Part shown: piece by piece, positions 11,629 through 32,026 of the stretch | How the letters are laid out: the number at the start of each line of letters is the position of its first letter | How positions within the stretch are numbered: the first letter of the stretch is position 1 | Virus genome (UHGV): UHGV-0014568 | Origin: a virus | DNA length: 37,204 bases | Direction: 5' to 3' (one strand) | Notes under the pieces: generated by a model | Database searches by the model: none | Told to the model about the DNA's origin: nothing | Seen by the model: the letters and a program-made list of their open reading frames with translations, nothing else | Translations under genes and position numbers: made by a program

Positions 11629-11696
11629 ATCAATGACTCCGTACGCAATTAAATTATTACCAATTTAACCACATATGATTTATTTATCGTAGATAG

Positions 11697-11733
11697 TTGA
11701 CATTTAACGCACGAATTATTACCTTTTAGGTAA
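11697..11733 (+). promoter_or_regulatory. Promoter-like region (TTGACA at 11697-11702) with TTACC-N5-GGTAA palindrome (11719-11733) upstream of the tRNA cassette
   Basis: Consensus -35 hexamer; no good -10 at canonical spacing; operator-like palindrome TTACCTTTTAGGTAA overlaps the expected -10/+1 region. Confidence 0.35.
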
Positions 11734-12055
11734 GCAAATGGTTCATTCCAGTTATTAACCTGACTGGCTTGTCGTTAAATTGAACAGGTGGAGTGAGCTT
11801 TTATTTTGAGCAGTACGGCGTATGGCACATGCGCCGATAGCGGTCTGGATACGTTTAAGGGGCACCCTCCCTTGCTCGGGCAAACGAACCAGGTAGCCGG
11901 AATGTGCAAGTCGAGCGGTTTTATTCCGCGCACGGGGATTCACCATCCCGGCGATTCGGTGTGACGCCTCGGAAGAGACGAGGATACAACGATGAGAGCA
12001 TTTCTGGAGCCGCGACAAAGTGTGGCGCCTTAACAGGCTAAGTGCTCTCAGCGTT

Positions 12056-12132
12056 GTGGCATTAGCTCAGTCGGACAGAGCAACCGCCTTCTAAGCGGTT
12101 GGTCGCAGGTTCGAATCCTGCATGCCACGCCA
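12056..12132 (+). tRNA. tRNA-Arg (anticodon UCU, reads AGA)
   Basis: Hand-folded cloverleaf: acceptor GTGGCAT/ATGCCAC, D-stem GCTC/GAGC, anticodon stem ACCGC/GCGGT with loop CTTCTAA (TCT at 12090-12092), T-arm GCAGG-TTCGAAT-CCTGC, discriminator G and encoded CCA. Confidence 0.85.
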
Positions 12133-12330
12133 GAATCACGCCTAAGGACCGTGATGCCAGAAGTTCCAGGTGCTTGGCGGTGATGGTTTCCCTTGAAGGA
12201 CTATCACCGCCCTTTTTACAGCAGGACGCCATTGCGATGACTTCATGCTGTAAACCAGTACAGCCACGGAAGGCATAACTCATTGCTTCCAGTTCGCCCG
12301 GTTCGCCGGGCATTTTTTTAAGGTGAGATT

Positions 12331-12687
12331 ATGAACGACCAGCAAATCGAAAAAGAAATCGTTGAGAAAGGCAAAACGGCACCGCGCGTTACGCCCCAAT
12401 ATATCGAAAGCATCATTCTTGAAGAGCATTTCTTTACTGCTTATGACGGTATTCGTGCCGCCAGTATGGGCGTTGGCGATACGTGGACAGCGCATAAATC
12501 TACAAACCTCCTTACTTTCTGCGTACTGGTGCTGAAGAATGGCTTCACCGTCACCGGAGAGAGCGCATGTGCAAGCCCGGAAAACTTTGATGCAGAAATT
12601 GGTCGGAAGATTGCCCGGCAGAATGCTGTAAACAAAATCTGGATGCTTGAAGGTTACTTGCTGAAGCAGAAGTTAAGCGAGCAATAA
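12331..12687 (+). CDS. Small moron protein, possibly phage Gp49/Sf6 gene-66-like family
   Basis: 118-aa ORF with AAGGTGAG RBS; opposite orientation to the flanking structural genes; family assignment is recollection of a conserved FFTAYDG...GDTW...NGFTVTGESAC pattern. Confidence 0.45.
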   Translation: MNDQQIEKEIVEKGKTAPRVTPQYIESIILEEHFFTAYDGIRAASMGVGDTWTAHKSTNLLTFCVLVLKNGFTVTGESACASPENFDAEIGRKIARQNAVNKIWMLEGYLLKQKLSEQ

Positions 12688-12691
12688 CACC

Positions 12692-12703
12692 GTGACATGT
12701 CAC
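12692..12703. repeat. 12-bp perfect palindrome GTGACATGTCAC (copy 1 of 3)
   Basis: Exact palindrome 5 nt after the stop of the plus-strand moron gene and just before its terminator. Confidence 0.8.
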
Positions 12704-12707
12704 AAAC

Positions 12708-12734
12708 AGCCAGCCTATGAGCTGGCTTTGTTTT
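12708..12734 (+). terminator. Rho-independent terminator for the tRNA/moron cassette
   Basis: 7-bp stem AGCCAGC/GCTGGCT with 6-nt loop followed by TTGTTTT. Confidence 0.6.
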
Positions 12735-12777
12735 ATCCTCACCAGAGGATATCAACGACATTATCCCCACCAGCGGA

Positions 12778-14253
12778 TTAAGCATAGGGATCGTAATCTG
12801 TAATGGCCTTGCCTTGCTGGTTCTGCTGACCTGGAATTCGCAGACGCTTCGACACAGGGAAAGCAAACGTCAGCAGTAGCGCATCGCCTTTACCCGGCGA
12901 ACGCCCAAGACGCTCTTTGATATCTTCCTTCGGTTCGATAACGATTTTACCGTCCACACGAACTTTGTACTCTGCCGCCGACAGGTCGTCTGCTGTTTCC
13001 TGGTCATCCAGTATGCCGCCCAGCCTCAGCCATGTCTTGCATGAATTGAACATCTCCCCACGCTTGTTGAGCATCTGCGGGTCAGTAGACGCGCCACCGA
13101 ACGGAACAAGTTGCCATGTACGACCCCATCCGTCACCGATTGACTTCAGACCGGTTCCGTAACCGAAGTCGATGAACACCGCGTCAGCCTGGTACTGGTC
13201 TTCAAAGTCAGCGATACGCTTCGCCATAATCAGATCGTCGGTGGTCTTGTTACCAGTCCATAGCACCTTACTGTGCAGCCCCTGCCGCAGGTATATCACC
13301 GCGTCATCAACGCCTGAGTATGCCGGGTCAACGCCGATTATCACCGGAGCATGTGCAACCTGCGCAGCGGTTACCACCCGTTTCATTGCCTCATCAGTAA
13401 GACCGGTAGGGATAAACTGCAATTCAGATGCATCAGGGAATATGCCGCGCACACGGATTTTAACGAAGTCGCTGTCTTCCCCGTAGTCATCAACCCATTT
13501 CTGCAACTGCTGTTTGTTAGTGCCTTCCACCGTCCGGCTGTCAATCTGCGCACACTTCCAGCGGTGTTTGTACTTGCGGAAACATTCACGGAAACGCCCG
13601 GTGTTACGCGTCGGGTTCCCGAACGCCACCCAGATGATTTCGGTGTCTTCGTCCGTCAGCGCACCCTCTGCTACCTCCCACACCAGATCGGCAATGTTCG
13701 ACGCTTCATCGAATACCACGATGATGCGTTTGCGCTCGTTGTGTAGTCCGGCGAATGCCTCAGTGTTGTGCTCAGACCAGGGGATTGCGTCAGCTCGCCA
13801 CCGCTTGTCGTGCCCAGGATCATTGCTGTACATCGCGGTAGCGGTACAGGTAAACCAGTCTTTCGTGATAGCAAGGTTCGACCACTTGATAATTTCCGGC
13901 CAGGTCTTCGTTCGTAGCTGGTTGTCGGTGTTGGCGGTCACCACGACCTTACAATCCTCGCAAGTGGACATGCCCCAGTTGATCAGCATTGAGATGAATG
14001 CGGATTTACCAATACCGTGACCAGAAGCGCGTGCCAGCATAAGCGGCTGATAGCGCGTCTCTGGATTCTGCAGGTGATCACGTATCTCTCGGAACGCATC
14101 AGCCTGCCACTGACGTGGGCCGGTGGCATGTGCCAGTTCAGTCCCCTCTTCCCCCCACGGGAACGCATAGAGGGCATAGCCAAGCGGATCGTGAGTGAAC
14201 CCTGCAATATCCTCGATCAACTGCTCTTCAGGAGATAACGCTGTATCTGTCAC
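12778..14253 (-). CDS. terL: Terminase large subunit
   Basis: 491-aa ORF; Walker A-like GHGIGKS near the N-terminus; overlaps terS by 4 nt; GTG start per ORF track. Confidence 0.85.
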   Translation of the reverse strand: MTDTALSPEEQLIEDIAGFTHDPLGYALYAFPWGEEGTELAHATGPRQWQADAFREIRDHLQNPETRYQPLMLARASGHGIGKSAFISMLINWGMSTCEDCKVVVTANTDNQLRTKTWPEIIKWSNLAITKDWFTCTATAMYSNDPGHDKRWRADAIPWSEHNTEAFAGLHNERKRIIVVFDEASNIADLVWEVAEGALTDEDTEIIWVAFGNPTRNTGRFRECFRKYKHRWKCAQIDSRTVEGTNKQQLQKWVDDYGEDSDFVKIRVRGIFPDASELQFIPTGLTDEAMKRVVTAAQVAHAPVIIGVDPAYSGVDDAVIYLRQGLHSKVLWTGNKTTDDLIMAKRIADFEDQYQADAVFIDFGYGTGLKSIGDGWGRTWQLVPFGGASTDPQMLNKRGEMFNSCKTWLRLGGILDDQETADDLSAAEYKVRVDGKIVIEPKEDIKERLGRSPGKGDALLLTFAFPVSKRLRIPGQQNQQGKAITDYDPYA

Positions 14254-14846
14254 TGATTACCATCCTGACGTTCTTTGAGTCGCTTCCTGGCTGCTGCTAT
14301 GCGATCAGCAATTGTCACATTCACATTAACATCCAGACGTTCTTTGAACGCGTTGACATCAACATGCTTACCAATCAGCTCAAGGTTCTTCACCTTGTCA
14401 GGCCATTTAATTTTTTTGAGGATTGTCTCTATCGAATCCTCGTTCATGTTCATGATGGTCGATGACAGATCAAAGCCACTAAGCGTAGTGCGCCAGATTT
14501 TCGGCCACTCACGGATTGGTTTAAGGCTCCCATCGTCGTTGAGGATGTCGATCACGTCCATCTGGTCGATCTCCACCAGGCGCATGAGAACGTAATCAGC
14601 ACTGACGCGCATTCGTTTGTTGCGCTCCTCCATCAACTCGGCAATCCGTTTTTGAATGCGTTCATCGCGCATCATGACACTGGCTTTAACTGCCGCTGTA
14701 TTTGGGGAGAATCCTGCGTTAATCGCTGCCTGAGTCTGGTTTTCAGGCGTTTTGATGTATGACTGGCAATAAGCCTCCTGCATTGCCGTTAGTGGCTTAA
14801 ATTGCGTTGATTTGCGTTTATAGGTTTTAGGTTCAGCAGGCATCAT
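14250..14846 (-). CDS. terS: Terminase small subunit
   Basis: Immediately upstream of and overlapping terL; ORF track starts at TTG 14924, but the in-frame ATG-ATG at 14846/14843 with a GGTGG RBS is the more likely start (about 198 aa). Confidence 0.65.
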   Translation of the reverse strand: MMPAEPKTYKRKSTQFKPLTAMQEAYCQSYIKTPENQTQAAINAGFSPNTAAVKASVMMRDERIQKRIAELMEERNKRMRVSADYVLMRLVEIDQMDVIDILNDDGSLKPIREWPKIWRTTLSGFDLSSTIMNMNEDSIETILKKIKWPDKVKNLELIGKHVDVNAFKERLDVNVNVTIADRIAAARKRLKERQDGNQ

Positions 14847-14863
14847 AACCACCGTGGTAATAG

Positions 14864-14878
14864 TTACCGTTGTGGTAA
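14864..14878. promoter_or_regulatory. TTACC-N5-GGTAA palindrome (TTACCGTTGTGGTAA) in the terS leader
   Basis: Exact operator-type palindrome 18 nt upstream of the preferred terS ATG, flanked by GTGGTAATAG direct repeats. Confidence 0.5.
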
Positions 14879-14956
14879 TAGTACCATGCAAAATAAAGCC
14901 GCCATAGTTGGCGGCAGTATTCAAAACACGTCAAATTCATCATGCATAATCTACTC

Positions 14957-14968
14957 GTGACATGTCAC
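14957..14968. repeat. 12-bp perfect palindrome GTGACATGTCAC (copy 2 of 3)
   Basis: Exact palindrome overlapping the stop of the upstream 115-aa ORF, about 110 nt upstream of the terS ATG. Confidence 0.8.
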
Positions 14969-15312
14969 ACTATTAATTTCGTTTCATGCCAGCCTTTAGT
15001 CACCCAGCATTGCGAGTCACCATTACACGGGCATGAATTAACTGGAACTCTCTCGCCGCACTTACCGCAACGTTTTCTGCTGATCGATTTTATACGCCCG
15101 CGCACACGTGCATCATCCTGGCGGATCAGCAGCGCGATGTACTCGGCCATTTCATAGGGATCGCGACCAGGGCGCCGGGCGGCGCAGTTCCGCGCCAGCA
15201 TTTCCTGCTCCTGCTTATCCAGCACCAGTTCAATTTTGCGCTCACCGGCGGCGGACTGCCGAGCGCGCTGCGCGGCTTTGCGTTCTGCGGGGGATTTAGC
15301 CACGAACCGCAC
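14965..15312 (-). CDS. Arg-rich protein with C-terminal Cys cluster, unknown function
   Basis: 115-aa ORF (GTG start); C-terminal CGKCG...CPCNG zinc-binding-like motif; start uncertain; overlaps the small ORF 15296..15418. Confidence 0.3.
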   Translation of the reverse strand: MRFVAKSPAERKAAQRARQSAAGERKIELVLDKQEQEMLARNCAARRPGRDPYEMAEYIALLIRQDDARVRGRIKSISRKRCGKCGERVPVNSCPCNGDSQCWVTKGWHETKLIV

Positions 15313-15418
15313 TCCACGCCAGATTGATTAATGACTCCCAGGTAATATAAACCCGGATACCAGCAGCCAGGCCGAAACCAATCACCATGGCATAAAGCAG
15401 AGCGTTGCACTTGTTCAT
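15296..15418 (-). CDS. Possible 40-aa single-pass membrane peptide
   Basis: ATG shares one base with the upstream stop (TGATG); hydrophobic core ALLYAMVIGFGLAAGI; below the ORF-track size cutoff; conflicts with the 115-aa ORF start. Confidence 0.25.
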   Translation of the reverse strand: MNKCNALLYAMVIGFGLAAGIRVYITWESLINLAWSAVRG

Positions 15419-15999
15419 CAGTTCACCTCCTGCGGTGGTTCCGGTAGCGGCATCCAGTGAGTTGAGCTCTCTACTTCGACGCCGTCTTTGTCCACAAAAG
15501 CCATCTTATTCCCGCCACGAGTGGGGCAAAAAACCTTATCCCAAGAACCGGGGAATACATTACCGAGATCATCGAGAAGAATCACATCGCAATATTCAGC
15601 AGGAACTGCATCACTACAGCTTATCCAGCCAGCCGGAGTTACCGGAGGGGTACCCGATAGCGCATTCTGCTCCAGTGATGCTTTTACAAACCACGCTGCC
15701 TGAACTATTACGCCATGAATCCAGCGCAAATCAGCATCGCGATCGTTCTTTTTCATCTTTTCACCACTTAAAGCCTGGCTTATGTGGCTGCATACTAGGT
15801 TTTCATGTAATTCCTTCGCATCCTCAATGGTGAAACCACCAGGTAAACGCCCCGGAGTTACCGGAGAGTTGCCAGCCTTGCGCATGGCAATTTCCACGAT
15901 TTCAACCATATCTTCTGGTGGAATTTTACAATGCTGGCCAATATGCCTCTGCTGTCTGGCATACTCGAGGATGTGCTCCAGCTTGGTTCGATTAATCAT
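15418..15999 (-). CDS. DUF551-like phage protein
   Basis: 193-aa ORF; C-terminal GWISCSDAVPAEYCDVILLDDLGN...THWMPLPEPP matches my recollection of the DUF551 pattern. Confidence 0.45.
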   Translation of the reverse strand: MINRTKLEHILEYARQQRHIGQHCKIPPEDMVEIVEIAMRKAGNSPVTPGRLPGGFTIEDAKELHENLVCSHISQALSGEKMKKNDRDADLRWIHGVIVQAAWFVKASLEQNALSGTPPVTPAGWISCSDAVPAEYCDVILLDDLGNVFPGSWDKVFCPTRGGNKMAFVDKDGVEVESSTHWMPLPEPPQEVN

Positions 16000-16442
16000 G
16001 ATTTATCTCCCTTAAGCATGGCGGCGCGGCAGGCTTCATCAACCATAGCTTCTACGTTTTCGAGAAGTACGTAACTGTACTGCTGCCCGCTAACCCATTC
16101 TTTTCTGCGAGGTAATGCGCGTGGGTCCGCTACAATGGCTCGCAAACGTTCCAGAACAGCTGGTACTGCTGGCGCTGGCGTGGCAGTGTATAGCGCCGTT
16201 GTACCCATCGGCTTATGATTGCATTTCGGGCAAACGTCGTTCTCTCGCCAGTCCTCAATTGTTTCCCACCCGCAGCGACAACATTCGTAACTGATGTAGT
16301 CAGGTTCTGCCTCCAGCGATGCCAGAGCAATCCGTGCCAGCTCTTCCGCTTCTTCTGCTGGCAGTACAACGTTGCTACCAGGTCCGTATGTTTCGCGCCA
16401 CTGCTTGATTGTCAGCAGTCGCTCTTTGGTAATAGTGTTCAT
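15996..16442 (-). CDS. Zinc-ribbon protein, unknown function
   Basis: 148-aa ORF with CCRCG...CPKCNH motif; 4-nt overlaps with both neighbours. Confidence 0.4.
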   Translation of the reverse strand: MNTITKERLLTIKQWRETYGPGSNVVLPAEEAEELARIALASLEAEPDYISYECCRCGWETIEDWRENDVCPKCNHKPMGTTALYTATPAPAVPAVLERLRAIVADPRALPRRKEWVSGQQYSYVLLENVEAMVDEACRAAMLKGDKS

Positions 16443-16804: not shown

Positions 16805-16805
16805 A

Positions 16806-17024: not shown

Positions 17025-17157
17025 TCATTACCGCCCTTCCGGGCGGCCTCCTGATGTTCTGAGGGTACAGAAATCCCTCCGGTTAAGGATTTAATAAAAA
17101 TCACTTCTGATTTAAATTTTCAGTGTTTTGTTGTCATGTGGTTTATCGCCTTTATGC

Positions 17158-18288: not shown

Positions 18289-18349
18289 CTTTACCCTCGC
18301 TTATCCACATAACTTATTGATTACATTGATAACTAAAAAGATCGTCGAT

Positions 18350-18694
18350 TCAGAACTCTTCGATGTTCCAGCCGCCACCTGCTTTCTTTGGTTTAACCGT
18401 TACCCCGATGATTCGGAACGGATACTGATCTGCGGCGACTTTGGTTTTCACCCTGGCGTCGTCGGTCCAGAAACCTTTCACTTCGTGCAGTTCCATCTCG
18501 CCGGTGGCGAGCATCACAGCAAAATCGGGCGTATAGAACGTGTTGTCAGCTAACCGCAGCTTGATACCCTCAAATCGATACCAGACGATTTCTCCTGCAC
18601 GTTTACGCAGCTCAAGGTGCTGGCAATACGCAGATTCTGTTTTGTTCATCTGTCCTGTTTTGAGTCGACCAAGAGCCTGTATCTGTTTTCTCAT
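18350..18694 (-). CDS. Small PD-(D/E)XK-like (DUF1064/VRR-NUC-like) nuclease-fold protein
   Basis: 114-aa ORF with TPDF...ELHEVK...K arrangement typical of a minimal PD-(D/E)XK core; AGGGG RBS. Confidence 0.4.
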   Translation of the reverse strand: MRKQIQALGRLKTGQMNKTESAYCQHLELRKRAGEIVWYRFEGIKLRLADNTFYTPDFAVMLATGEMELHEVKGFWTDDARVKTKVAADQYPFRIIGVTVKPKKAGGGWNIEEF

Positions 18695-18697
18695 GAT

Positions 18698-18774
18698 TTA
18701 CCCCTAAGGTAATTAAAAACCACATAAGACACGAAATCAATAGATTTTAGAATATTTTATTACCTAACAGGTAA
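18698..18774. promoter_or_regulatory. Intergenic control region with two TTACC-N5-GGTAA palindromes
   Basis: TTACCCCTAAGGTAA (18698-18712) and TTACCTAACAGGTAA (18760-18774) flank an IHF-like AATCAATAGATTT and an AACCACATA motif, between the P-like gene and the nin-like genes. Confidence 0.5.
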
Positions 18775-18811: not shown

Positions 18812-19612
18812 TTACTTGATAAATCCTGACGCCTTTCCCCGCCTGTATTCCTCCATCAGCCACTGCGCCGGTGTTATTCCCCCCAGGGTGGCGGCGTTAG
18901 GCATACACCCGAAACTTCGCCCTGGTGGATGGTAAACGTCTCTCCCTGTGTCCGGAGGCGTACTCATGGGTTCTGGCTTTGCCTGTATGCTGATCACCGG
19001 ATCGGGTATCTGCTGTCCGGAAGCCACCTTTTTCGCCCAATCATCGAGCAGCCTGCGCGCGTGTTTCTCAACCTCAATCTCGCTAAGCTGGCGCTGATAC
19101 ATTGCACGGCGGGTATCACATACGACCCAGTACATAACCGGATGCCGCCACGGGAATCTTTCGGGACCACCAGGATATAAACTTTTTTCCTTGCTGTACC
19201 GGTGAAACTCCGTCATCACATCGTCAATGGTGACGCCAAGAACCATCTTGCTGTCTTTGCACCACTTGATGAATTGCCCTGGCGACGGCCAGAACGGAGA
19301 ATCACTGGCGCGGGCGTGGCGCATACCAGCAGAAACCTGTTCACGGGTTCGGATCCCCCCTTCGGCAAACGCAGCAATCCACTGCTGTTTTGCAGCAACT
19401 TCCTGCTCTGGCGTCTTCAGGTTGGTTACCACTGCCGCCGGAAACAGTTGTTTCAACTGTTTGAAAAGGGCATCAACAAGCCTCTCTGCTGACATGTTCA
19501 CTACGTTGTCATTGTTGGTGTACTGATGCTCATAACCTGACATGCGAGAAAGGGCCTCTCCGTCACGGTTTTGTATTGCGGTAAAAACGTTGTTCACAAG
19601 AAATCCTCCCAT
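18812..19612 (-). CDS. Replication protein P-like helicase loader
   Basis: 266-aa ORF; segment QWIAAFAEGGIRTREQVSAGMRHARASDSPFWPSPGQFIKWCKD parallels lambda P (QWVLAFRENGITTMEQVNAGMRVARRQNRPFLPSPGQFVAWCRE) from memory. Confidence 0.7.
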   Translation of the reverse strand: MGGFLVNNVFTAIQNRDGEALSRMSGYEHQYTNNDNVVNMSAERLVDALFKQLKQLFPAAVVTNLKTPEQEVAAKQQWIAAFAEGGIRTREQVSAGMRHARASDSPFWPSPGQFIKWCKDSKMVLGVTIDDVMTEFHRYSKEKSLYPGGPERFPWRHPVMYWVVCDTRRAMYQRQLSEIEVEKHARRLLDDWAKKVASGQQIPDPVISIQAKPEPMSTPPDTGRDVYHPPGRSFGCMPNAATLGGITPAQWLMEEYRRGKASGFIK

Positions 19613-20457
19613 GCTTCAGGGCTGTTCCAGTGCGGAACGTTGTTATCAGGTAATGTTGATTGCTTCTGTCTGCTAATCTGCAGCCGCCTTGCCAGCTTCT
19701 GCTCCCACTGTGCCTGATGGTATGCCTTACCCTCAGCCATCCAGTAAATTCTGAACTCTGCAAGTTCCTGTGCCGTTGGCAGACTGTCCAGGTAGATCCC
19801 CTGCAATGAGCTTTTCCGAAGAAAGTCATCTGATGGCTGCCATTGTTCATGCATGACAAATTTGCCTAATTGCCCTGGCCCACCAGGAGGAACAAAGTTA
19901 TTCATCACGGCGTTGTTTGCGCCGGGGTCATGAGGCACAGAATTCCCGTTTTTTGTCCTGCTCTCCCTCTCTTGGTTAAATGACTGGTTATATGACTGGT
20001 TCTGGATCCCGTTTTTGGGATCATTCAACATCCCGTTTTTGGGATCATTCAACATCCCGTTTTTGGGATCATTCAACATCCCGTTTTTGGGATCATTCAA
20101 CATCCCGTTTTTGGGTATATTCCCGTTTTCGGTAACATTACCGTTTTCGGGTTCATTACCCCCTTCCCGGTTGCCTTTAATGTTCCCGTTTTTGGTTATA
20201 TTAAGAGAGAAAACCCGCACTCTTTTCGTCGCTCCCTTTCTCTCTCCGGTATCTGAAATAAGCCCCATTTTCATGAGCGATATAAGCCCGGCCTGCACGG
20301 TTTTTTTATTCAGGCAAGTGTCTTTAACGAGGCGTTCTATGCTGGGGTAGCAGAGGTTATATTCATCGGCTCTGTCAGCCATCGAGAGCAGTATGAGCTT
20401 TAATGATGAGCTGCCTGGATCTGTCTCCCAAGCCCAATCTGTTGCATGTCTGCTCAT
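19594..20457 (-). CDS. Replication initiator (O-like position) with DnaT-like C-terminal domain and internal iteron-encoded repeats
   Basis: 287-aa ORF; C-terminal GKFVMHEQWQPSDDF...YWMAEGKAYHQAQWEQKLARRLQ resembles E. coli DnaT; contains GMLNDPKN x4 encoded by the 24-bp iterons; GGAG RBS. Confidence 0.65.
   Translation of the reverse strand: MSRHATDWAWETDPGSSSLKLILLSMADRADEYNLCYPSIERLVKDTCLNKKTVQAGLISLMKMGLISDTGERKGATKRVRVFSLNITKNGNIKGNREGGNEPENGNVTENGNIPKNGMLNDPKNGMLNDPKNGMLNDPKNGMLNDPKNGIQNQSYNQSFNQERESRTKNGNSVPHDPGANNAVMNNFVPPGGPGQLGKFVMHEQWQPSDDFLRKSSLQGIYLDSLPTAQELAEFRIYWMAEGKAYHQAQWEQKLARRLQISRQKQSTLPDNNVPHWNSPEAWEDFL
20006..20101. repeat. Four perfect tandem 24-bp direct repeats (ATCCCGTTTTTGGGATCATTCAAC), probable replication-origin iterons
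   Basis: Exact head-to-tail copies at 20006, 20030, 20054 and 20078, followed by degenerate CCCGTTTT(C/T)GG copies to about 20215 and preceded by a TGACTGGTT x2 repeat; all inside the replication initiator gene. Confidence 0.7.
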
Positions 20458-20673: not shown

Positions 20674-20753
20674 GGTAAGCCATGTTATTAGTATTGGGAT
20701 TACGGTTATTTTGTGCTGACACAAAAAAAAGATCAACCAGATTTGGTTTTTTA

Positions 20754-20800
20754 TTACCTTTAAGGTGCGAATAGATATGAAAAGACCGCCGGATGGCGGC
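20754..20800 (-). promoter_or_regulatory. Region after the cro-like gene: operator-variant TTACCTTTAAGGTG plus GC hairpin (possible tR1-like terminator)
   Basis: 5-bp GC stem CCGCC/GGCGG followed on the minus strand by CTTTTC; also a copy of GAATAGATATGA. Confidence 0.3.
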
Positions 20801-20823: not shown

Positions 20824-21054
20824 TCATGAGTAGAAGAAGTATGCCAGTTCTGCTTTTGAGCGCAGCCATTGTCTTGTTTTACAGGCTTTAAAAAGCCCAT
20901 TCATCAATACCTTACCTGGCATTTTGCGCTTACCTGTTAAGTGAGTCTGGATATAGTGACTCGTCGTTCCGGCTTCCTGTGCGAAGGCTTCACGCTCATC
21001 CGGAGTAAGTGCAAGCCAGTGCTTTTTGAAATCGAAATGTCCGTTATCGCTCAT
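20824..21054 (-). CDS. Cro-like small HTH regulator
   Basis: 76-aa ORF divergent from the repressor gene across an operator-rich gap; HTH-like segment LTPDEREAFAQEAGTTSHYIQTHLTGKR; first gene of the long minus-strand series. Confidence 0.5.
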   Translation of the reverse strand: MSDNGHFDFKKHWLALTPDEREAFAQEAGTTSHYIQTHLTGKRKMPGKVLMNGLFKACKTRQWLRSKAELAYFFYS

Positions 21055-21091: not shown

Positions 21092-21185
21092 CACCCATAA
21101 GGTAACAAAAATCAAGGATAGTTACCTATGGGGTGCATTTACCTGTTGGGTAATATTGCTTTAAATTGAATCATCTACTGATTCA
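21092..21185. promoter_or_regulatory. OR-like divergent operator/promoter region
   Basis: Inverted pair CACCCATAAGGTAAC (21092-21106) and GTTACCTATGGGGTG (21121-21135), exact TTACCTGTTGGGTAA (21139-21153), and a separate perfect palindrome TGAATCA-N5-TGATTCA (21167-21185). Confidence 0.6.
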
Positions 21186-21208: not shown

Positions 21209-21793
21209 ATGAAAAGTATCCAGGACGTCCGCAGGCAAAATCTCAACGACTTGATCGACCGTGAATTCAATGGTGTTCAGACGCGGATGGCAGAAAAACT
21301 TGGAACTCAGGCAAATCTGGTAAACCGCTGGGCTCTTGGCAAGAAGGTTATCGGCGACCAGGTTGCGCGAAAAATTGAAGCTGCCGCCAATAAACCCCGT
21401 AACTGGCTTGATATCGATCGCTCGCTTTCTCAAGAAGGTTTTCAGCCTGTCGGACCAAGCGACATTGGTCAGCTGGCGGCTCACAACCTGGAACGCTGGA
21501 TGAGCGAAAGCCGAGACCTTTCAACGCAGGGAAAACTTCACCGCGCATCCGGCGTCGCCCAGGTGACAATCAGCCGCCTGTTAAACAATGAGGTCAGCGT
21601 TTCCATTTCCACCCTGGAGAATGTTGCATCCGCATTCGGGCGTCACGGCTATGAATTACTGATTCACCCGCACGACCCTGCGACTATCAACTATGATCGC
21701 TCGCGCTACGCATTGTTACCTGAAACAGAGAAGGCAAAGATCGAAAGTTACATTGAATTTGTCATCAACCAGAACGAAAAAAGCAAACAATAA
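21209..21793 (+). CDS. Prophage repressor candidate (CI position) with two XRE-type HTH domains and no peptidase domain
   Basis: 194-aa ORF between the OR-like and OL-like regions, with its own terminator; two HTH-like segments (QTRMAEKLGTQANLVNRW and GVAQVTISRLLNNE); no Ser/Lys S24 autopeptidase motifs seen. Confidence 0.5.
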   Translation: MKSIQDVRRQNLNDLIDREFNGVQTRMAEKLGTQANLVNRWALGKKVIGDQVARKIEAAANKPRNWLDIDRSLSQEGFQPVGPSDIGQLAAHNLERWMSESRDLSTQGKLHRASGVAQVTISRLLNNEVSVSISTLENVASAFGRHGYELLIHPHDPATINYDRSRYALLPETEKAKIESYIEFVINQNEKSKQ

Positions 21794-21850: not shown

Positions 21851-21927
21851 TTACCTTACGGGTAATTTTTTTAACTCATATCTATTGACAACAAACCAAA
21901 TACGCATAATTATTACCTAAACGGTAA
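21851..21927 (+). promoter_or_regulatory. OL/PL-like promoter with two TTACC-N5-GGTAA operators
   Basis: TTACCTTACGGGTAA (21851-21865), -35 TTGACA (21885-21890), CATAAT-like -10 region and TTACCTAAACGGTAA (21913-21927) just before the first gene of the plus-strand operon. Confidence 0.55.
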
Positions 21928-24206: not shown

Positions 24207-24455
24207 ATGAAAGGTGCATTAGGTAAGAAGGAACTCCTGGCGGTGGTGCCACTGTCATGGAGCACTATCGACCGTATGGAGCGCGCAGGGGAATTTCCTA
24301 AACGCTGGTATATCACCGATAAACGCTGCGCATGGAACCGCGATGAAGTTGAGCGTTGGCTTGATGAACGTCAGGCAGCAAGCCCGGCAGAGTTCCAGGG
24401 TAAAAAACCTCCTGTTCAGCAACGTGTATATCGTCCTGTGAGCAACGCGGCATGA
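24207..24455 (+). CDS. AlpA-family small DNA-binding protein (regulator or excisionase candidate)
   Basis: 82-aa ORF with strong RBS; LLAVVPLSWSTIDRMERAGEFPKRWYI...W...EVERWL matches the AlpA/Xis pattern from memory. Confidence 0.5.
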   Translation: MKGALGKKELLAVVPLSWSTIDRMERAGEFPKRWYITDKRCAWNRDEVERWLDERQAASPAEFQGKKPPVQQRVYRPVSNAA

Positions 24456-24564: not shown

Positions 24565-24864
24565 GTGAGAAAGTTAAGCCGACTTGAAAAATATCACATG
24601 AACAAGGTTTCAATGCGCAGCCATTCAAAGGTTGTTGCCGTTACTCCTGCGGCGATAGAGATCGAAAAACGCGCGATTGAAAGAGAGAAAAAAGGGCAGT
24701 TCCGCATTGCCGCTCACCTTTGGCTTCAGTGTATGGATGTTGCTTCTGGTGATGTTGAGCGTGCAAGGATCGCGGTTCGCAGGGACCAATGTATCACAAA
24801 AGGTAACGGCCTTCGCCGTGGCGACTATAGCGGCATAGGATGTTGTGGGGTGGTTTATGACTAA
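24565..24864 (+). CDS. Small regulator-like protein, possibly PerC-family
   Basis: 99-aa ORF (GTG start with GAGGG RBS); family call from recollection of a G.FRIAAHLWL...RR.QC pattern; weak. Confidence 0.3.
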   Translation: MRKLSRLEKYHMNKVSMRSHSKVVAVTPAAIEIEKRAIEREKKGQFRIAAHLWLQCMDVASGDVERARIAVRRDQCITKGNGLRRGDYSGIGCCGVVYD

Positions 24865-25698: not shown

Positions 25699-25701
25699 AC
25701 G

Positions 25702-27269: not shown

Positions 27270-27752
27270 CTATCTTGTCAGGGTGTCATACTGTTTTTCG
27301 CAGACTCTTCCGGCTTCGGCTGCCCGGTCAGCATACTCTGCCAGTTGTCTGTTTCTCTCGAGAGATTTGCTGAGCACGTCGGCAAGCAAAACTCCGGTGT
27401 CTGCGGCTGACGTCCCAGCGCCGACAATGGCGTTATACTGCCTGAGCTGCTCACGGATGGCAAAGAGTTGTTGCTGCAACCTGCCAGCGCGAACGGCAGC
27501 ATCAAGAGCATCATTGCGCGCCTGGTCGATCCTCTGCTGAGCTTCACGTTCATTGGTCGCTTTCTCCCGTTCGTACTGCTTACGAATTCTCTCATCTTCA
27601 GCTTTGCGGTCTTCCTTAGCCTGCGCATACCCGGCGTCGTACTGACGACTGCCGTGTGCATTCCAGGCTACAACTCCTGATATTACCAGAACAGCAAGCA
27701 TCACCATGATAACCAACTGTTTCCAGTATGCTTTTGCGAATGCCCAGATCAT
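27270..27752 (-). CDS. Rz-like inner-membrane spanin
   Basis: 160-aa ORF overlapping the endolysin stop; N-terminal TM ([18 protein letters not shown]) then charged coiled-coil region. Confidence 0.6.
27278..27514 (-). CDS. Rz1-like outer-membrane lipoprotein spanin embedded in the +1 frame of Rz
   Basis: Signal peptide with lipobox ([13 protein letters not shown]), Pro-rich mature part; wholly inside the Rz gene. Confidence 0.5.
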   Translation of the reverse strand: MMLLMLPFALAGCSNNSLPSVSSSGSITPLSALGRQPQTPEFCLPTCSANLSRETDNWQSMLTGQPKPEESAKNSMTP

Positions 27753-28378
27753 ACCGCCAGCACCTTACTGGCAGTGATGTACCGCGCGCGCCGGTCGTCG
27801 ATGCCGTTCCGGCCACCATTGATAATCAGAGTTACACGTGCAATATCGCCGGTATACTTCATGCAACCTTTGCTGGAGAAGAACCACGCCGCGCTACGAG
27901 CCGCGTATTCGTCCTGCGCCAGCAGTTCAGGATTCTCCAGCAAGTCCACTTTCAAGCCGTTTCCGCAGTCACGATAGTTATTCAAACCGGTAATCTGGAT
28001 AAGTCCGCGACCTCGGTAATTCCAGCCATCACCAGGGGCATTGTTCCCCATGCGTTTGCTGTACACCAGATTGGCGATCGCTCTCTGGCGCTCAAGTGGC
28101 AACAGCGGTTCGCCTACGCGTCGCCCCAATGCGTTAGCCTGTCCCTGGGTGAGACGCCCAGCCCGAACGAAGTTAGCCAGTCCGGTGACGCTGTAGTTGA
28201 AATTTTCCTGCAACCGGGTGAAGCCCACAGACTCATGCCCGACCTGAGCAATAAACATTGCCTGATCTTCGGGTTTGCTTATTCCAAACTCTTTCATCGC
28301 TGAAGTTATATGCGAGAACCAGCGTGCAGCCAGTGCCTCGCTAATACCAGCAGCTCGCTGGAATTGTTTAATCTCCAT
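27749..28378 (-). CDS. Endolysin, glycoside hydrolase family 19-like
   Basis: 209-aa ORF with GAGG RBS; [16 protein letters not shown] motif typical of GH19-type lysins; no N-terminal signal-anchor. Confidence 0.7.
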
Positions 28379-28676
28379 ATTTAGACCTCGTTATTTTGAA
28401 AATCTGAACGACGTTACCGCGCGTTTTAATAACCGCAGCAAGCATGACAGCGTTGATAATGACCTCAGATAAATCCACAACCATTGGCGTGCGTAACCAG
28501 ATTGCATAAACAACACGAACAGGGATACTGGCCGCTGCAACAATCAGGAAATAAGCAAGCCACCCACCCCATCTCCTGTGTTGAGAACCGTTTCTCCGAA
28601 ATGTGGCAACTCGAACTGCTATACCGGCGCAAATAGCCGCATTGGTGATAAGCAAAAAAAGCTCATGAGTTACCAT
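28368..28676 (-). CDS. Holin (three predicted TM segments)
   Basis: 102-aa ORF immediately upstream of and overlapping the endolysin; three hydrophobic stretches; GGAG RBS. Confidence 0.5.
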
Positions 28677-29067
28677 CGTCTTTTCTCCCCGGAATTAACT
28701 CGCGTGGATTATCGGAACGGTGATAGAGCCAGATTCCAATTCGCACTGCGACGATTGCTGACACAAATGCACCGGCAGAGAAAACAATCCCTTTCTCGAA
28801 AGAATCCTGTGTGATTGTAGGGATCAGGCTGGCTATGCCGATAAGAATTGATGCTGCTGGTTTGTAGAATAGAAGTCCGCATAGAAAGCTAAGCATCGAC
28901 AAAAGCACGCGACGACGAATTGGATACTCTACCGCAGAGGTAACAAAAATTACCGCCCCAGACAAAGACCCCAAAGCAACCTCAGGAGGAACACCGGCCA
29001 CAACCGCAATAAAAGAACTAACACTAAGCCACTGATTTAAAGACTCACTTGTTAGTTGAACTGACAT
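28663..29067 (-). CDS. Multi-pass membrane protein of the lysis cassette (second holin or antiholin candidate)
   Basis: 133 aa from ATG 29067 with GGTGG RBS (track's longer ORF starts at 29157); several hydrophobic segments; overlaps the holin start. Confidence 0.4.
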   Translation of the reverse strand: MSVQLTSESLNQWLSVSSFIAVVAGVPPEVALGSLSGAVIFVTSAVEYPIRRRVLLSMLSFLCGLLFYKPAASILIGIASLIPTITQDSFEKGIVFSAGAFVSAIVAVRIGIWLYHRSDNPRELIPGRKDDGNS

Positions 29068-29168
29068 AAAAACCACCGTTTCATGTGCATGAAGAACCCA
29101 CTTATTTGTGAGTTCATCATACACAATAAACCATATGTGGTTAAACCATAAAGACAACTATCTTGTCT

Positions 29169-31907
29169 TTATTGGATAATATGGAACGAATTTTTAACAT
29201 GAATAGTAGCAGAATTATTACTATTATTAATTAAAGCGATCTTCCCGCCAGAATATCCGGGAACAGCCTGTTGAACAGTTCCGCCAGTAGTGGGTTTAAC
29301 TGTTATTGTAGGTACTGACCCTGCCAGGCCAGCTGTAAGCTTGACCTCACCTGTCACATCGCAAGTCAATGTGCCGACAACAGTAAGAGCGCCGAAAAGC
29401 ATTGTTGAAATCTCAATTCCAGTTGAAGTTCTCTTTGCAACAACTCCGCTTTGTGAAGTAGGTTTATAGTAAAAAATCACTCCACAGCCAACAGGAATTG
29501 ATGATAAAGCAACGTTTTGAACATTTGGTGATTTAGTTGCACCATACATATCAGGAGATTCATCATTAGCAGTTTCTGCCGCATACGACAATAACAAATC
29601 AGCTCTATCCCTTACCTGCCCATATACTCCTTTTATTGCATTTTCAGCAAGATACACTGAAGCGCTTTGCGAGCATGACTCTTTCAAATCTCCTCTAAAC
29701 AACAGCCCTGGTGGATATACTTTTGATGGCGTACCATCGTAAATAATCTCAATCTGATTAAGTCCTTTTTTAAGGGTTCCAAGGTGAGTGGTTAGTTTGT
29801 TTGTAAACGATGAGACGCCATTACTAGCGATATTACCAGAACTAAATGCTGTATTACGGATATCTTGTTGTCGGATAGAGATGGAGTTAGCGCGACCGTT
29901 TGCAACATATGTTGGGTTATACGGCTCAAAAACAACCAATGATATATCAGAAGTTTCACACCAGACAAAATATCGTATGGTTAAATTTTCAGTAGCTGGG
30001 TAAACCACGCCCCAGCCAGTTAGACCATTTAGATACGTGTCTCCACTCAACCGCTCCATACCAACGCTGTACGTGCTACCAGACGGGAAGCCAAATGGCT
30101 GGATATCATTATCAACTGTTGGTACGAAGTTATTCCCTTTTTTCGCAGTGTGGACTCTATACGGCATAACAGCCTTTGCTGCATATGCGCCGATATATTG
30201 ATGGCCCAGAGGAGCAAAATGCGTGCTATCAAAAGTGCCATCTGTCGGGCGCCGAGCAATATCTTCAAGCGTATAGCTTCCGAGGTCTCTGTACATCTCG
30301 GTTACTGGCTGAGAGAGATCGAGGAACTCTACCGCAGGGAACAGGCGTTCAATATGCTTCTTAATTGATGCTTCGAGAGCCGCCCATTGTGAGCCATTCT
30401 GGTTCATTGAAACAACGCAGACGGCACATCCGTAACCCCATGCTTTACGGATAAACTGCTCAAAACGGAATAAATACTGATCGAACCCTAACGTATCAAG
30501 TTGTCCGTTATCGTTAACGCCCATGGATATGAAGCAAACGTCTGGCGGCACGTTTCCGTATGCAGTGTTTTTGAAGAAGCCATGGTCAAAGTTACGATTC
30601 GCCCACCCGTCAATGAGTCGCTTTCCAGAAGATGCGCAGTTTTCAGCCTTAAATATGTAAGCACTATTTTTAGTAAATCGGTTAAGCCAGTCGGTAAATG
30701 TGCGAAACCAAGAACCTGAACCACCATTACTATTGTGATCGTAGTTAGTTGAAGATAGGTCACCATTAGAATCGGTTGGATTAGCTGACCATCCAGCACC
30801 GTATGCGCCGTCAGTGATTGAATCACCAACGATACCAACACGACATAGCGTATTGCGGCGAGCGAACTGGTTTATTACGTTGAATGCAGTGTATTTACTG
30901 CCATGAGTTGCCAATCCAACATCAAATATGTGCTCATTCCCCCATGGATCTCTGGTGAGAATTTTTCCTTCACCGATAAATTTTGTCACATCATCATCTG
31001 GCAGGAAATTGCAGCGTAGCTGAACATCCTTCGGAACATAAATTTGTCCAGTATAAGCGTATACTGCAGCGCGGTTATCTGTCTCGCTATCAATGACTAC
31101 CCCAGGAACATATTTCACGGCTAATGCATCATTGCGATATTTACCGTTGCTTAGCTCTGTCCTTAATACAGCATCACCTACACCTATCCATGCCCCTGGA
31201 CCAACACCACCAGTAGTGGTAGGAGTTGATCCAGGCGGAACTACTTTGGGCAGTGGCCCATCCCATCTGTAGTATTCGCCGTTGCTTTCCCAGAGAAGAA
31301 CATCGTTAAGATAGATGATGGTATTACCCAACTCAAAAGATTTCTTCGTGTTATAGCCATACAATCCATTTTCTAAGGTTTCAATAATGGTGCTAAGTAT
31401 GGTACTAAATTTTGCATAAAGATCATCAGTATATTTTTTTGTAGCAGCATCTTGGGGAAGAGATGGATCACGAAGATTTCTAATATAATTTGAAAGCGCG
31501 TCATAAAAAATTGCTACGTCATTTGGCTTTCTTAAAGCCAACTTATCATTTCTTAATGATTGTTGAATGAGCATAGTAAGTTTATCAAACGCATCCTCAT
31601 GTACCTCAGCGAAGAACTTACCCTGATTACGTAAATCCGTTTCCTGAGTAGCTGGTAGTTCTCGTGATATAGATATCTGATGACCGTTAGCCAACGCCTT
31701 CGAGAGAATTACATTACCGCCGTTGTACCCTCCCGCTCCGGTGACGATGTAATCTGTATCAAGAACCAGTACGTTTATATTCTCGCTAATGTCAACAACC
31801 TGTACTACCAGATCTGATTTTTTGAAGATCCTAAATTTGTAAGGGAATGTCGTCGTAACACCATTGCCAGTGTATTCGTTGTGGTTAACTTCGGTTGAGA
31901 CCGTCAT
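29169..31907 (-). CDS. Tailspike/tail fibre with T7-type N-terminal attachment domain and SGNH (GDSL) esterase domain
   Basis: About 912 aa from ATG 31907 with GGAGA RBS (track ORF starts at 31949); N-terminus VNHNEYTGNGVTTTFPYKF resembles podovirus fibre N-terminal domains; SGNH blocks GDSITDG (Ser codon at 30819-30821), GVNDNG and DSTHF. Confidence 0.7.
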   Translation of the reverse strand: MTVSTEVNHNEYTGNGVTTTFPYKFRIFKKSDLVVQVVDISENINVLVLDTDYIVTGAGGYNGGNVILSKALANGHQISISRELPATQETDLRNQGKFFAEVHEDAFDKLTMLIQQSLRNDKLALRKPNDVAIFYDALSNYIRNLRDPSLPQDAATKKYTDDLYAKFSTILSTIIETLENGLYGYNTKKSFELGNTIIYLNDVLLWESNGEYYRWDGPLPKVVPPGSTPTTTGGVGPGAWIGVGDAVLRTELSNGKYRNDALAVKYVPGVVIDSETDNRAAVYAYTGQIYVPKDVQLRCNFLPDDDVTKFIGEGKILTRDPWGNEHIFDVGLATHGSKYTAFNVINQFARRNTLCRVGIVGDSITDGAYGAGWSANPTDSNGDLSSTNYDHNSNGGSGSWFRTFTDWLNRFTKNSAYIFKAENCASSGKRLIDGWANRNFDHGFFKNTAYGNVPPDVCFISMGVNDNGQLDTLGFDQYLFRFEQFIRKAWGYGCAVCVVSMNQNGSQWAALEASIKKHIERLFPAVEFLDLSQPVTEMYRDLGSYTLEDIARRPTDGTFDSTHFAPLGHQYIGAYAAKAVMPYRVHTAKKGNNFVPTVDNDIQPFGFPSGSTYSVGMERLSGDTYLNGLTGWGVVYPATENLTIRYFVWCETSDISLVVFEPYNPTYVANGRANSISIRQQDIRNTAFSSGNIASNGVSSFTNKLTTHLGTLKKGLNQIEIIYDGTPSKVYPPGLLFRGDLKESCSQSASVYLAENAIKGVYGQVRDRADLLLSYAAETANDESPDMYGATKSPNVQNVALSSIPVGCGVIFYYKPTSQSGVVAKRTSTGIEISTMLFGALTVVGTLTCDVTGEVKLTAGLAGSVPTITVKPTTGGTVQQAVPGYSGGKIALINNSNNSATIHVKNSFHIIQ

Positions 31908-31961
31908 GTTAAATCTCCAGATAGTCGCAGCACCCGTTGCGCCGCACATCCGGTCATTCTA

Positions 31962-32026
31962 TTACCTGAAAAACCACATATGGATAGATAACCCATAAAT
32001 ACGAACAGATATCACCTTTCAGGTAA
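31962..32026. promoter_or_regulatory. Long-range inverted repeat TTACCTGAAA ... TTTCAGGTAA with AACCACATATG motif between tailspike and the LexA-box gene
   Basis: Half-sites at 31962-31971 and 32017-32026 are exact reverse complements, 45 bp apart; AACCACATATG at 31972-31982. Confidence 0.4.

Follow-up and report, generated by a model that had tools for sequence, protein, structure and literature searches.

The question raised by this locus is what reads a short motif that recurs beside the repressor operators of a temperate phage. The window, that is, the whole 37,204-nucleotide stretch of viral genome UHGV-0014568 that was analysed, represents an epsilon15/phiV10-like temperate podophage in the reverse complement of the usual map orientation. 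Its placement in Uetakevirus is given by nucleotide similarity (phiV10 and relatives are 96–98% identical; for epsilon15, the value across the terminase/portal region is about 81%) and by gene order in common with phiV10, epsilon15 and SPC32H. Its operons are set apart by many intrinsic terminators, and the repressor is encoded as follows:

21209..21793, plus strand: Rep repressor gene (E = 3.5e-42 to SPC32H Rep, PDB 5D50)

The TTACC-N5-GGTAA palindromes of the window are the annotated operators of Rep. A preliminary description had reported a second motif next to them, suggesting a composite promoter or regulator module. The recurrence of this motif is real, as AACCACAT occurs six times against 1.55 expected, and none of 100 shuffles reached six. 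The longer form AACCACATATG is found exactly at 11667-11677 (plus), 31972-31982 (plus) and 29132-29142 (minus), and AACCACATAAG at 18718-18728 (plus); with at most one mismatch, AACCACATATG gives four matches against 0.81 expected, a count reached by 2 of 100 shuffles. The two plus-strand copies lie where they had been placed, but the minus-strand copy belongs at 29132-29142 and not 29124-29134, the minus-strand 8-mer given as 17131-17138 occupies 17136-17143, and the last plus-strand copy starts at 32351 instead of 32348. The matches at 17136 and 32351 are probably incidental; the former has neither a second arm nor a Rep site nearby, and the latter falls within the final codons and stop codon of an antirepressor-like gene. 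The gap of 5–10 nt to a TTACC half-site, proposed for three regions, is exactly 5 nt in all three (TTACC at 11657-11661 and 31962-31966; GGTAA at 18708-18712, the right arm of a full palindrome). Furthermore, TGGWT-N5-GGTAA was matched three times against 0.11 expected and TGGWT-N5-TTACC twice against 0.12 (in total, 5 versus 0.23).

The motif first described, AACCACATATG, is the better-conserved of the two arms of a conserved 14-bp pseudo-palindrome, AWYCRTATRTGGWT (AACCA-N4-TGGTT; arms AWCCA-N4-TGGWT), whose ideal form AACCATATATGGTT occurs as perfect palindromes in Tyrion. Using a matrix built from relatives only, excluding the window, and a threshold of 12 bits, seven loci of at least 12 bits were found in the window, with 12 matches over both strands against 1.8 expected (0/200 shuffles). 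The 14-mer is present at six regulatory sites, here designated modules A, B, C, H, T and PL, with module B at just 10.1 bits; none was found at attP. The suggestion of a composite module is supported by comparative evidence, in amended form: a 14-bp pseudo-palindrome in place of an 11-mer, together with a TTACC/GGTAA half-site at a fixed 5-bp spacing, makes up a conserved unit of intergenic promoter regions, in six modules and not three, the holin, post-cro and early PL promoters being added. The features concerned are:

11667..11680, minus strand: module A 14-mer AATCATATGTGGTT, upstream of the gp3/portal head operon, 20.3 bits
11657..11661, minus strand: isolated Rep half-site of module A, GGTAA on this strand, 5 bp from the TGGTT arm
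11719..11733, unstranded: full Rep operator TTACCTTTTAGGTAA of module A
11697..11725, plus strand: conserved strong sigma-70-like promoter TTGACA-17-TACCTT of module A, mean 11.2 bits in 18 orthologues
11651..11679, minus strand: weak predicted head-operon promoter ATCATA-17-TAATTT, about 3 bits, layout as in module C
18718..18731, minus strand: module B 14-mer TGTCTTATGTGGTT, upstream of the DUF1064 gene 18350-18694
18698..18712, unstranded: Rep operator of module B, 5-bp gap to the 14-mer
18760-18774: second Rep operator of module B, 62 bp from the first
20735..20748, unstranded: module T 14-mer AACCAGATTTGGTT, directly past the cro-like gene terminator
21894..21907, plus strand: 14-mer-like spacer AACCAAATACGCAT of PL, 15.8 bits on the minus strand
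29129..29142, unstranded: module H 14-mer, near-perfect palindrome AACCACATATGGTT / AACCATATGTGGTT, holin/lysis cassette
31972..31985, minus strand: module C 14-mer ATCCATATGTGGTT, upstream of the tailspike gene 29169-31949, 21.2 bits, conserved in 7 genomes
31956..31984, minus strand: predicted tailspike promoter TCCATA-17-TAGAAT, mean 9.2 bits in 7 orthologues
32066-32081: genuine LexA box beside module C

In module A, the strong promoter points toward tRNA-Arg (12056-12132) and an N4 gp49-like gene, with the head genes behind it, and has its -10 inside the Rep operator, while the 14-mer overlaps the -35 and spacer of the weak predicted head-operon promoter. The epsilon15 orthologue of this operator carries the annotation 'protein_bind repressor'. 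The module B 14-mer, which scores 14.5–18.9 bits in relatives, lies within the spacer of a predicted promoter, TTGATT(18735-18740)-17-TTTAAT(18712-18717). In module C, the Rep half-site GGTAA (31962-31966) occupies the spacer of the tailspike promoter, with a full operator at 32012-32026. The module H 14-mer lies 7 nt upstream of a conserved -10, TATGAT (29116-29121, minus strand), with no Rep operator nearby in the window. A gap of 5 bp separates the module T 14-mer from the operator-like TTACCTTTAAGGTG (20754-20767), and the 14-mer also overlaps the -35 of a predicted promoter, TTGATC-17-CAAAAT (20708-20736, minus strand). Finally, the early promoter PL, TTGACA(21885)-17-AATTAT(21913), has Rep operators on both sides (21851-21865 and 21913-21927); Tyrion and BUCT554 show its motif clearly and BUCT711 less strongly, and epsilon15, SPC32H and Kp4865-1 lack it.

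Two regularities emerge from this arrangement. Five of the six 14-mer promoters carry Rep operators in the window, and in these the TGGTT/AACCA arm stands 5 bp from a Rep half-site. In all six modules, the 14-mer overlaps the -35 or spacer of a conserved sigma-70-like promoter, these assignments being consensus predictions and the head-operon one weak. Relative to the predicted promoters, the 14-mer is centred at about -19.5 (PL, B), -26.5 (H), -29.5 (A, C) and -40.5 (T), and its end is 0 (B, PL), 7 (H), 10 (A, C) or more than 20 nt (T) from the conserved -10. Since this distance varies, the 14-mer is not a fixed RNA-polymerase recognition element, and a fixed -35, extended -10 or -10 element of sigma-70 promoters is ruled out. 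It is improbable that the copies have no binder of their own and are paralogues of one promoter-operator cassette, with promoter-core sequence under polymerase selection. Each copy does overlap a predicted -35 or spacer, and layouts are shared, CATATGTGGTT-N5-GGTAATA by modules A and C and TGGTTTTTWATTACC by modules B and T; however, the distance to the -10 shifts by more than 20 bp among the copies and it is the spacing to Rep sites that is fixed, the 14-mer is two-fold symmetric, and spacer positions are conserved across genera. As all centres lie within the polymerase footprint but in no single register, neither a polymerase element nor a stereospecific activator fits as well as occlusion.

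The comparison across related phages, proposed in the preliminary description, recovered these modules again in six further phage genomes; module A also recurs in 11 prophages of other genera. The composite unit is conserved across the genus and in prophages of 11 other genera. All seven genomes have 5–7 loci of at least 12 bits each, mostly the orthologous intergenic modules, and the gap to the Rep half-site across them is 5 bp, rarely 4, 6 or 7. In module A, a 27-bp block, TAT.TGGTTAAATTGGTAATAATTTAA, does not vary among 17 distinct sequences from 11+ genera, although its flanks do, and shows hardly any SNPs across 75 close relatives; the IMG/VR portal relatives are 99–100% identical and inform on microdiversity only. 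In the promoter spacer of module B, C...T.TGG.T is conserved at positions that sigma-70 does not read. Shuffles and cross-genus conservation together rule out a chance origin. The rep-cro (PRM/PR) intergenic region had no 14-mer in any of the seven genomes. The 14-mer is unannotated in the epsilon15 GenBank record, whose annotated sites are those for the repressor, IHF, integrase and RNase III. In the ZX5 paper, four promoters are predicted, and the terms 'binding site' and 'palindrome' are absent. An earlier description in Kropinski 2007, Kim & Ryu 2013 or Kim et al. 2016 is possible.

Among the closest known counterparts of the 14-mer is the Rep operator itself (epsilon15/SPC32H type, ATTACC-N5-GGTAAT). 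Both are short repeated palindromes of intergenic promoter regions, they adjoin one another, and both have an ACC/GGT core. They differ in half-site (TTACC versus AWCCA) and spacing (N5 versus N4), and in module H the 14-mer has no operator beside it; TTACC-N5-GGTAA is matched by the neighbouring half-site alone. A reading in which Rep, a tetramer whose chains each have two HTH-containing domains, itself contacts the 14-mer, TGGTT-N5-GGTAA being a weak second operator in a bridged pair, is quite unlikely. The fixed 5-bp spacing would suit it, as would the 62 bp between the full-operator centre and the centre of TGGTT-N5-GGTAA in module A, which equals the distance in the operator pairs at B and PL. 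In addition, no regulator other than Rep is known to be made in lysogens, and a canonical operator is missing from module H in the window. According to a secondary source, Rep on DNA is a tetramer that binds through N-terminal domains drawn from different dimers (PMC9638917). The half-site and spacing nevertheless differ (ACC-N6-GGT versus ACC-N5-GGT, with an A/T swap), module H has the 14-mer by itself, the distance in module C is 50 bp rather than 62, and the HTH region of the Rep C-terminal domain is variable among phages that have the 14-mer in common.

Taken as a whole, the 14-mer is probably a functional cis-regulatory, protein-binding site at promoters, and appears to give epsilon15/phiV10-like phages a second class of operator-like site. 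From the observed enrichment, palindromic form, conservation, fixed Rep spacing and overlap with conserved promoter-like elements, we infer protein binding, and the reading preferred here is that a second regulator gates RNA polymerase at Rep-controlled promoters (probability about 0.4 for the full proposal, including a dimeric, phage-encoded binder). This DNA-binding protein would be other than the canonical domain of Rep, and its presumed effect on the six promoters (early-left, post-cro, DUF1064, head, tailspike and lysis) would come mainly from occlusion of RNA polymerase. Given the 5-bp spacing in five of them, the protein bound there would share roughly the DNA face of Rep, and its distance from the operator centre would be about two helical turns. 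The outcome would be a second control or timing layer over Rep. Three genes of the window are candidates for the binder:

20824..21054, minus strand: Cro-like HTH protein, 76 aa (phrog_35)
24565-24864: PerC-family 'activator' gene, in the PL operon
14965-15312: RHH-like/Cys-rich regulator, 115 aa, at the 'Q position'

The Cro-like protein is, tentatively, the leading candidate. Its helix AGTTSHYIQxHLT is invariant in seven phages whose proteins are otherwise down to 59% identical, and the Rep N-terminal recognition helix NLVNRW is invariant across the phage group; two invariant recognition helices (NLVNRW and TSHYIQxHL) thus stand beside two conserved palindromes, which counts in favour of the proposal. 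Operators of 14 bp are known from phage 434, and classical Cro uses the operators of the repressor and acts at PRM/PR. The 14-mer resembles Cro/CI-type operators in being a 14-bp two-fold symmetric site inside core promoters, and, as in those systems, the gene for a small HTH protein diverges from the repressor gene. Unlike the sites of classical Cro, it is present at structural and lysis promoters, and its absence from the PRM/PR region, where Cro would be expected to act, counts against this binder. The design of an early protein that represses the head, tailspike and lysis promoters is also not obvious. A Psychrobacter phage with homologous operators and a distant Cro-like homologue had no 14-mer within the 5 kb examined, which counts against the main proposal. 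Phyletic profiling of the Cro-like and PerC-like proteins was not discriminating; PerC-like proteins are found only in this phage group, and the Cro-like protein also has the Psychrobacter homologue.

The other two candidates bear on an unlikely alternative, in which a dual-function late or middle activator, produced once derepression has occurred, takes the place of a good -35 at the promoters of the head, tailspike and lysis genes and shuts PL and B through the spacer. Lambda CII and T4 MotA, whose box lies at about -30, are activators that bind in place of a good -35, and phi29 p4 and lambda CII illustrate the geometry of dual-function regulators combining late activation with early repression. 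As in such systems, the 14-mer lies over or in place of weak late -35 elements and also within early promoters; its spacing, however, is not stereospecific, and the 3-bp difference in site-to-(-10) distance between H and A/C does not favour an activator of that kind. Modules A and H have poor -35 elements, the -10 elements are conserved, the centre in module T (about -40.5) is a class II-like position, and module H has no Rep operator in the window, yet must stay silent in the lysogen, all of which would suit an activator for which candidate genes exist. The PerC-family protein occurs in 36 phage records, nearly the same set as the module A holders, but it also resembles protein-binding ANR regulators, and no defined DNA motif was found for the family, the words motif, consensus and footprint being absent from a paper on its member Pch; on these grounds it was downgraded as binder. 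Were it the binder, this would be the first defined DNA site for the PerC family, as far as found. The 115-aa regulator is widespread (N15 gp46, P2-like and Vibrio phages). Its N-terminal RHH-like part is not conserved in SPC32H, where the alignment begins only at residue 38, though SPC32H retains all modules, and in P2-like phages its family is an accessory gene beside an Ogr-like regulator. A single AACCATATAT half-match beside its gene in a Yersinia phage was not significant.

Epsilon15/phiV10/SPC32H-like phages serve as O157 and Salmonella reporter and typing phages and as a model of the Rep-Ant antirepression switch, and the circuit known so far comprises the Rep operators and a LexA-controlled antirepressor. 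No description of the timing of the head, tailspike and lysis genes was found in the accessible literature on these phages. A second, strongly conserved site phased with Rep half-sites in six promoters would offer a mutable handle on this missing control layer, and it yields a short list of candidate regulators. Because the 14-mer is an ordinary phage operator-like site, its value is specific to the phage group and not conceptual. It is doubtful that the 14-mer and Rep half-site together are the target of a regulator so far lacking one, timing all lytic units of a phage whose operons are each also under direct Rep control, in a genome-wide architecture of two-key promoters, with the Cro-like protein (acting off PR/PRM), the PerC/ANR-like protein and the RHH-like/Cys-rich 'Q position' protein as candidates.

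Host factors were compared by eye. The DnaA box (TTATNCACA) is fitted at 8 of 9 positions by module A, but not by B, C or the relatives (TATGGTT). The IHF consensus (WATCAANNNNTTR) is not fitted, and the annotated IHF sites of epsilon15 lie elsewhere (2918-2940, 19910-19932). The 14-mer has no CTGT/ACAG arms of a LexA box (CTGT-N8-ACAG), and no convincing match to IHF, DnaA, CRP, LexA, PdhR/UxuR or ArcA/OmpR-like repeats was seen. A host transcription factor site is improbable, as is, jointly with it, a loading site for a Q/AlpA-type antiterminator, although many intrinsic terminators between operons and conservation in phages of many enterobacterial genera would suit either. The element of PL and B is placed between -35 and -10, as are lambda QBE and the P. 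aeruginosa ABE, whose bipartite GGGACG-N5-GGTA (X6-N5-GGTA) is comparable to TGGTT-N5-GGTAA here (PMC7969949). However, the position of the element is variable, being outside the spacer in A, C and T, and no Q- or P. aeruginosa AlpA-type protein is encoded, the search for Q-like genes covering Pfam and PHROGs. The name AlpA is misleading in this context: the 'AlpA-family' protein of the window is an 82-aa PF05930 excisionase-type protein, unlike P. aeruginosa AlpA, which has eight helices with the HTH at about residues 128-142 (PMC9371919).

The window is 96–98% identical to phiV10-type E. coli phages and shares ~81% identity with Salmonella phage epsilon15 in the terminase/portal region. On the strength of these identities it is assigned as a Uetakevirus genome, in reverse complement of the usual map. 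When it was compared with six complete relatives (epsilon15, Tyrion, SPC32H, Kp4865-1, BUCT711 and BUCT554), the 11-mer singled out in the preliminary description emerged as the better-conserved arm of a 14-bp pseudo-palindrome, AACCA-N4-TGGTT (the 14-mer; phage orientation AWYCRTATRTGGWT), of which Tyrion carries perfect AACCATATATGGTT copies. The recurrence proposed for the motif is real: the 8-mer AACCACAT occurs six times against 1.55 expected, a count reached in 0/100 shuffles. Exact AACCACATATG copies lie at 11667-11677 (+), 31972-31982 (+) and 29132-29142 (-), and AACCACATAAG, one mismatch away, at 18718-18728, giving four matches with at most one mismatch in the window (0.81 expected). 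Most of the positions originally reported hold, three being displaced by 3–8 nt, and the minus-strand copy at 29132 is present as the second arm of a palindrome, not as an independent copy. A weight matrix trained solely on the relatives yielded 12 matches of ≥12 bits in the window (1.8 expected; 0/200 shuffles), which correspond to seven distinct loci.

Loci of the 14-mer scoring ≥12 bits in the window
11667: module A, head operon
20735: module T, after the cro-like gene
21894: module PL, early promoter
29129: module H, near-perfect palindrome before the holin cassette
31972: module C, tailspike
16812 and 32479: two further loci, in apparent coding sequence

The copy in module B, at the DUF1064 gene, scores 10.1 bits and falls below the 12-bit threshold.

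The fixed partner of the 14-mer is a half-site of the phage repressor, Rep. Palindromes of the form TTACC-N5-GGTAA with ≤1 mismatch number 13 in the window (0.5 expected), and the window repressor matches SPC32H Rep (PDB 5D50) with E = 3.5e-42. The epsilon15 GenBank record annotates seven such palindromes as 'repressor' binding sites, together with IHF, integrase and RNase III sites; it has no annotation at the place of the 14-mer. At 11.66 kb (region A), 18.7 kb (B) and 31.97 kb (C), a TTACC/GGTAA pentamer is followed after exactly 5 nt by the motif. The adjacency first noted in these three regions was thus borne out, with a gap sharper than the suggested 5–10 nt; modules T and PL had been overlooked. 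In modules A, B, C, T and PL, almost all of the seven genomes place 5 bp between the TGGWT/AWCCA arm and a Rep half-site, and isolated exceptions have gaps of 4, 6 or 7 bp. Five composite arm and half-site patterns occur in the window against 0.23 expected. The 8-mers at 17136 and 32351, previously counted as members, have neither a second arm nor a Rep site and are treated as incidental; the latter falls in the final codons and stop codon of ant, the antirepressor-like gene.

The neighbouring half-site belongs to a full operator in B, T and PL; modules A and C have a lone GGTAA in opposite orientation, so that TGGTT-N5-GGTAA there resembles an operator in which one arm has been exchanged. The centre of this element in module A lies 62 bp from the full operator, a distance also found between the paired operators at B and at PL; the corresponding distance in module C is 50 bp, and module H has no Rep operator nearby in this window. 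The phasing with Rep half-sites and the 62-bp spacing make Rep itself a candidate binder of the 14-mer, although the half-site and spacing of the 14-mer differ from those of the Rep operator and the HTH of the Rep C-terminal domain varies.

Two Rep operators in overlapping phase, 18 bp apart, were also observed just upstream of the terminase genes (14846-14878); the second is a hybrid, TTACCACGGTGGTTA, which has a GGTTA/TGGTT-like right arm and directly abuts the terS start codon. An inverted repeat, TGAATCA-N5-TGATTCA (21167-21185), lies between the rep start codon and the operator nearest to rep; it is not kept as such in relatives, which have TTACC- or TGGTT-like pentamers in this position.

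Conservation of the 14-mer is tight. Each of the seven genomes carries 5–7 loci of ≥12 bits, mostly in the same orthologous intergenic modules, with B, C, H and T conserved as well as A. The PL motif is clear in the window, Tyrion and BUCT554, weaker in BUCT711, and absent from the PL regions of epsilon15, SPC32H and Kp4865-1. Among 16 enterobacterial prophages retrieved via the portal protein, 11 carry module A (Scandinavium, Superficieibacter, Kluyvera, Pseudocitrobacter, two Citrobacter, Buttiauxella, Pseudescherichia, Pantoea, Erwinia and Klebsiella); neither operator nor 14-mer was found in module A of Proteus, Providencia and Morganella relatives. Across 17 distinct module A sequences the block TAT.TGGTTAAA-TTGGTAATAATTTAA is invariant, while the operator spacer, the neighbouring promoter's spacer and the leader vary. 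Furthermore, SNPs in 75 near-identical IMG/VR relatives are concentrated outside this block, and in three Klebsiella phages DNA-level similarity to a 421-bp query is detectable only in this ~100-bp regulatory stretch. Many prophages (L089-L095, L100, L103 and L104 among the retrieved relatives) also share a stretch, …tgtcacaccgtatcgccacgatggtga…ggcttgcacattccggctacc…, between the terminase genes and module A, ~100-250 nt upstream of the latter; in epsilon15 the corresponding area carries the annotation of an RNase III site, and the stretch may be a structured RNA or tRNA remnant.

Sigma-70-like promoters were scored in all orthologues, and alignment-conserved positions alone were kept.

Predicted promoters of the modules
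PL: TTGACA-17-AATTAT, mean 10.8 bits
A, directed away from the head genes, 11697-11725 (+): TTGACA-17-TACCTT, 11.2 bits
B: TTGAWW-17/18-TWAAAT, 9.2 bits; predicted -10 in the window TTTAAT, 18712-18717
C: TTCATA-17-TAGAAT, 9.2 bits; predicted -10 at 31956-31961
T: TTGATC-16/17-CAAAAT, 8.5 bits; predicted -10 at 20708-20713
H: x-17-TATGAT, 7.1 bits; predicted -10 at 29116-29121
Head operon: ATCATA-17-TAATTT, weak, about 3 bits; predicted -10 at 11651-11656

Relative to these predictions, the 14-mer is centred at about -19.5 (PL, B), -26.5 (H), -29.5 (A, C) and -40.5 (T). At PL and B it fills the spacer in the order -35, 3 nt, 14-mer, -10, and in every module it lies within the polymerase footprint, in differing register. 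On these predicted positions, the lack of one register means that the 14-mer is not a polymerase recognition element but a separate site. It is most simply read as a two-fold symmetric putative protein-binding site, whose occupant would control polymerase access at six promoters, five of them also with Rep operators in the window. Because the register varies, occlusion (repression or timing) is favoured over stereospecific activation; an activator or dual-function model stays in play, given that modules A and H have poor -35 elements and that module H has no Rep operator in this phage. The 14-mer would work like a phage operator. Its identity as a Rep operator, LexA box, DnaA or IHF site was rejected on the features that define these elements, for the last two by inspection, and that as a Q- or AlpA-type antiterminator loading element (QBE/ABE) was not demonstrable. 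Judged from sequence, it is rated a conserved putative regulator-binding site in a temperate-phage circuit, possibly mentioned earlier in the primary literature: specific, testable and tightly conserved, yet conceptually ordinary.

The promoter TTGACA-17-TACCTT is the strongest conserved one of module A. Downstream of it lies tRNA-Arg(TCT) (12056-12132, +), antisense to the structural genes; since the promoter's -10 sits inside a Rep operator, this tRNA and an N4 gp49-like gene (12331-12687) appear to be Rep-controlled. A conserved GC-rich hairpin, seen at 31925-31948 and in orthologues (L003, L084, L085) and reading TGCATGCGCGCCGGGCGCA in relatives, falls within the predicted 5' leader of tailspike mRNA, after the -10 and before the ribosome-binding site.

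Besides Rep, four phage proteins are candidate binders.

Candidate binders encoded in the window
20824-21054: Cro-like HTH protein
24207-24455: AlpA-family protein, 82-aa
24565-24864: PerC-family protein
14965-15312 (-): RHH-like/Cys-rich 115-aa regulator, 'Q position'

The Cro-like helix AGTTSHYIQxHLT is invariant among phages otherwise down to 59% identical, as is the Rep helix NLVNRW, and the Cro-like protein shows weak similarity to the N-terminal domain of Rep. Against it count the lack of a 14-mer in the rep-cro region of any genome compared and in 5 kb of a Psychrobacter phage that has homologous operators and encodes a Cro-like homologue. In that distant phage, pOW20-A (L109), operators ATACC-N5-GGTAT occupy TTGACA/TTGACT promoter spacers (1500-1640 and 2390-2470), and these homologies show that the Rep/Cro-like module reaches well beyond enterobacterial podophages. 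The AlpA-family protein is probably an excisionase, and attP has no 14-mer; in size and architecture it is unrelated to the P. aeruginosa AlpA antiterminator (PMC9371919), whose ABE sits between -35 and -10 (PMC7969949). The PerC-family protein, found in this phage group only, resembles protein-binding ANR regulators, and no defined DNA motif for the family was found in a paper on its member Pch. The 115-aa protein (phrog_536, 'transcriptional regulator') combines an RHH-like N-terminal half with a Cys-rich C-terminus (CGKCG...CPCNGDSQC) and its gene is the last one ahead of the terminase genes. Among its homologues are N15 gp46, phiKO2 gp44 and proteins from many Vibrio phages and from P2-like Yersinia phages; in SPC32H the N-terminal part is not conserved.

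A perfect LexA box, TACTGTATAAATATACAGTT (32064-32083), lies directly upstream of the antirepressor-like gene (32085/32104-32360), divergent from the tailspike promoter. This arrangement fits the Rep/Ant/LexA switch of SPC32H, with a LexA-controlled antirepressor, Ant. In a P2-like Yersinia phage, a similar LexA box (L110 7457-7472) precedes a small gene. In addition, an origin-like array was observed at 19973-20160, inside the replication-initiator gene (19594-20457, minus strand). TGGTTAAAT is found both in this region and in module A. The array consists of 4.6 perfect copies of a 24-bp unit, ATCCCGTTTTTGGGATCATTCAAC, each with ATCCC-N6-GGGAT. Ahead of the array stand three TGGTT repeats of period 12 (TGGTTAAATGAC...), and three less exact 18-bp repeats come after it.
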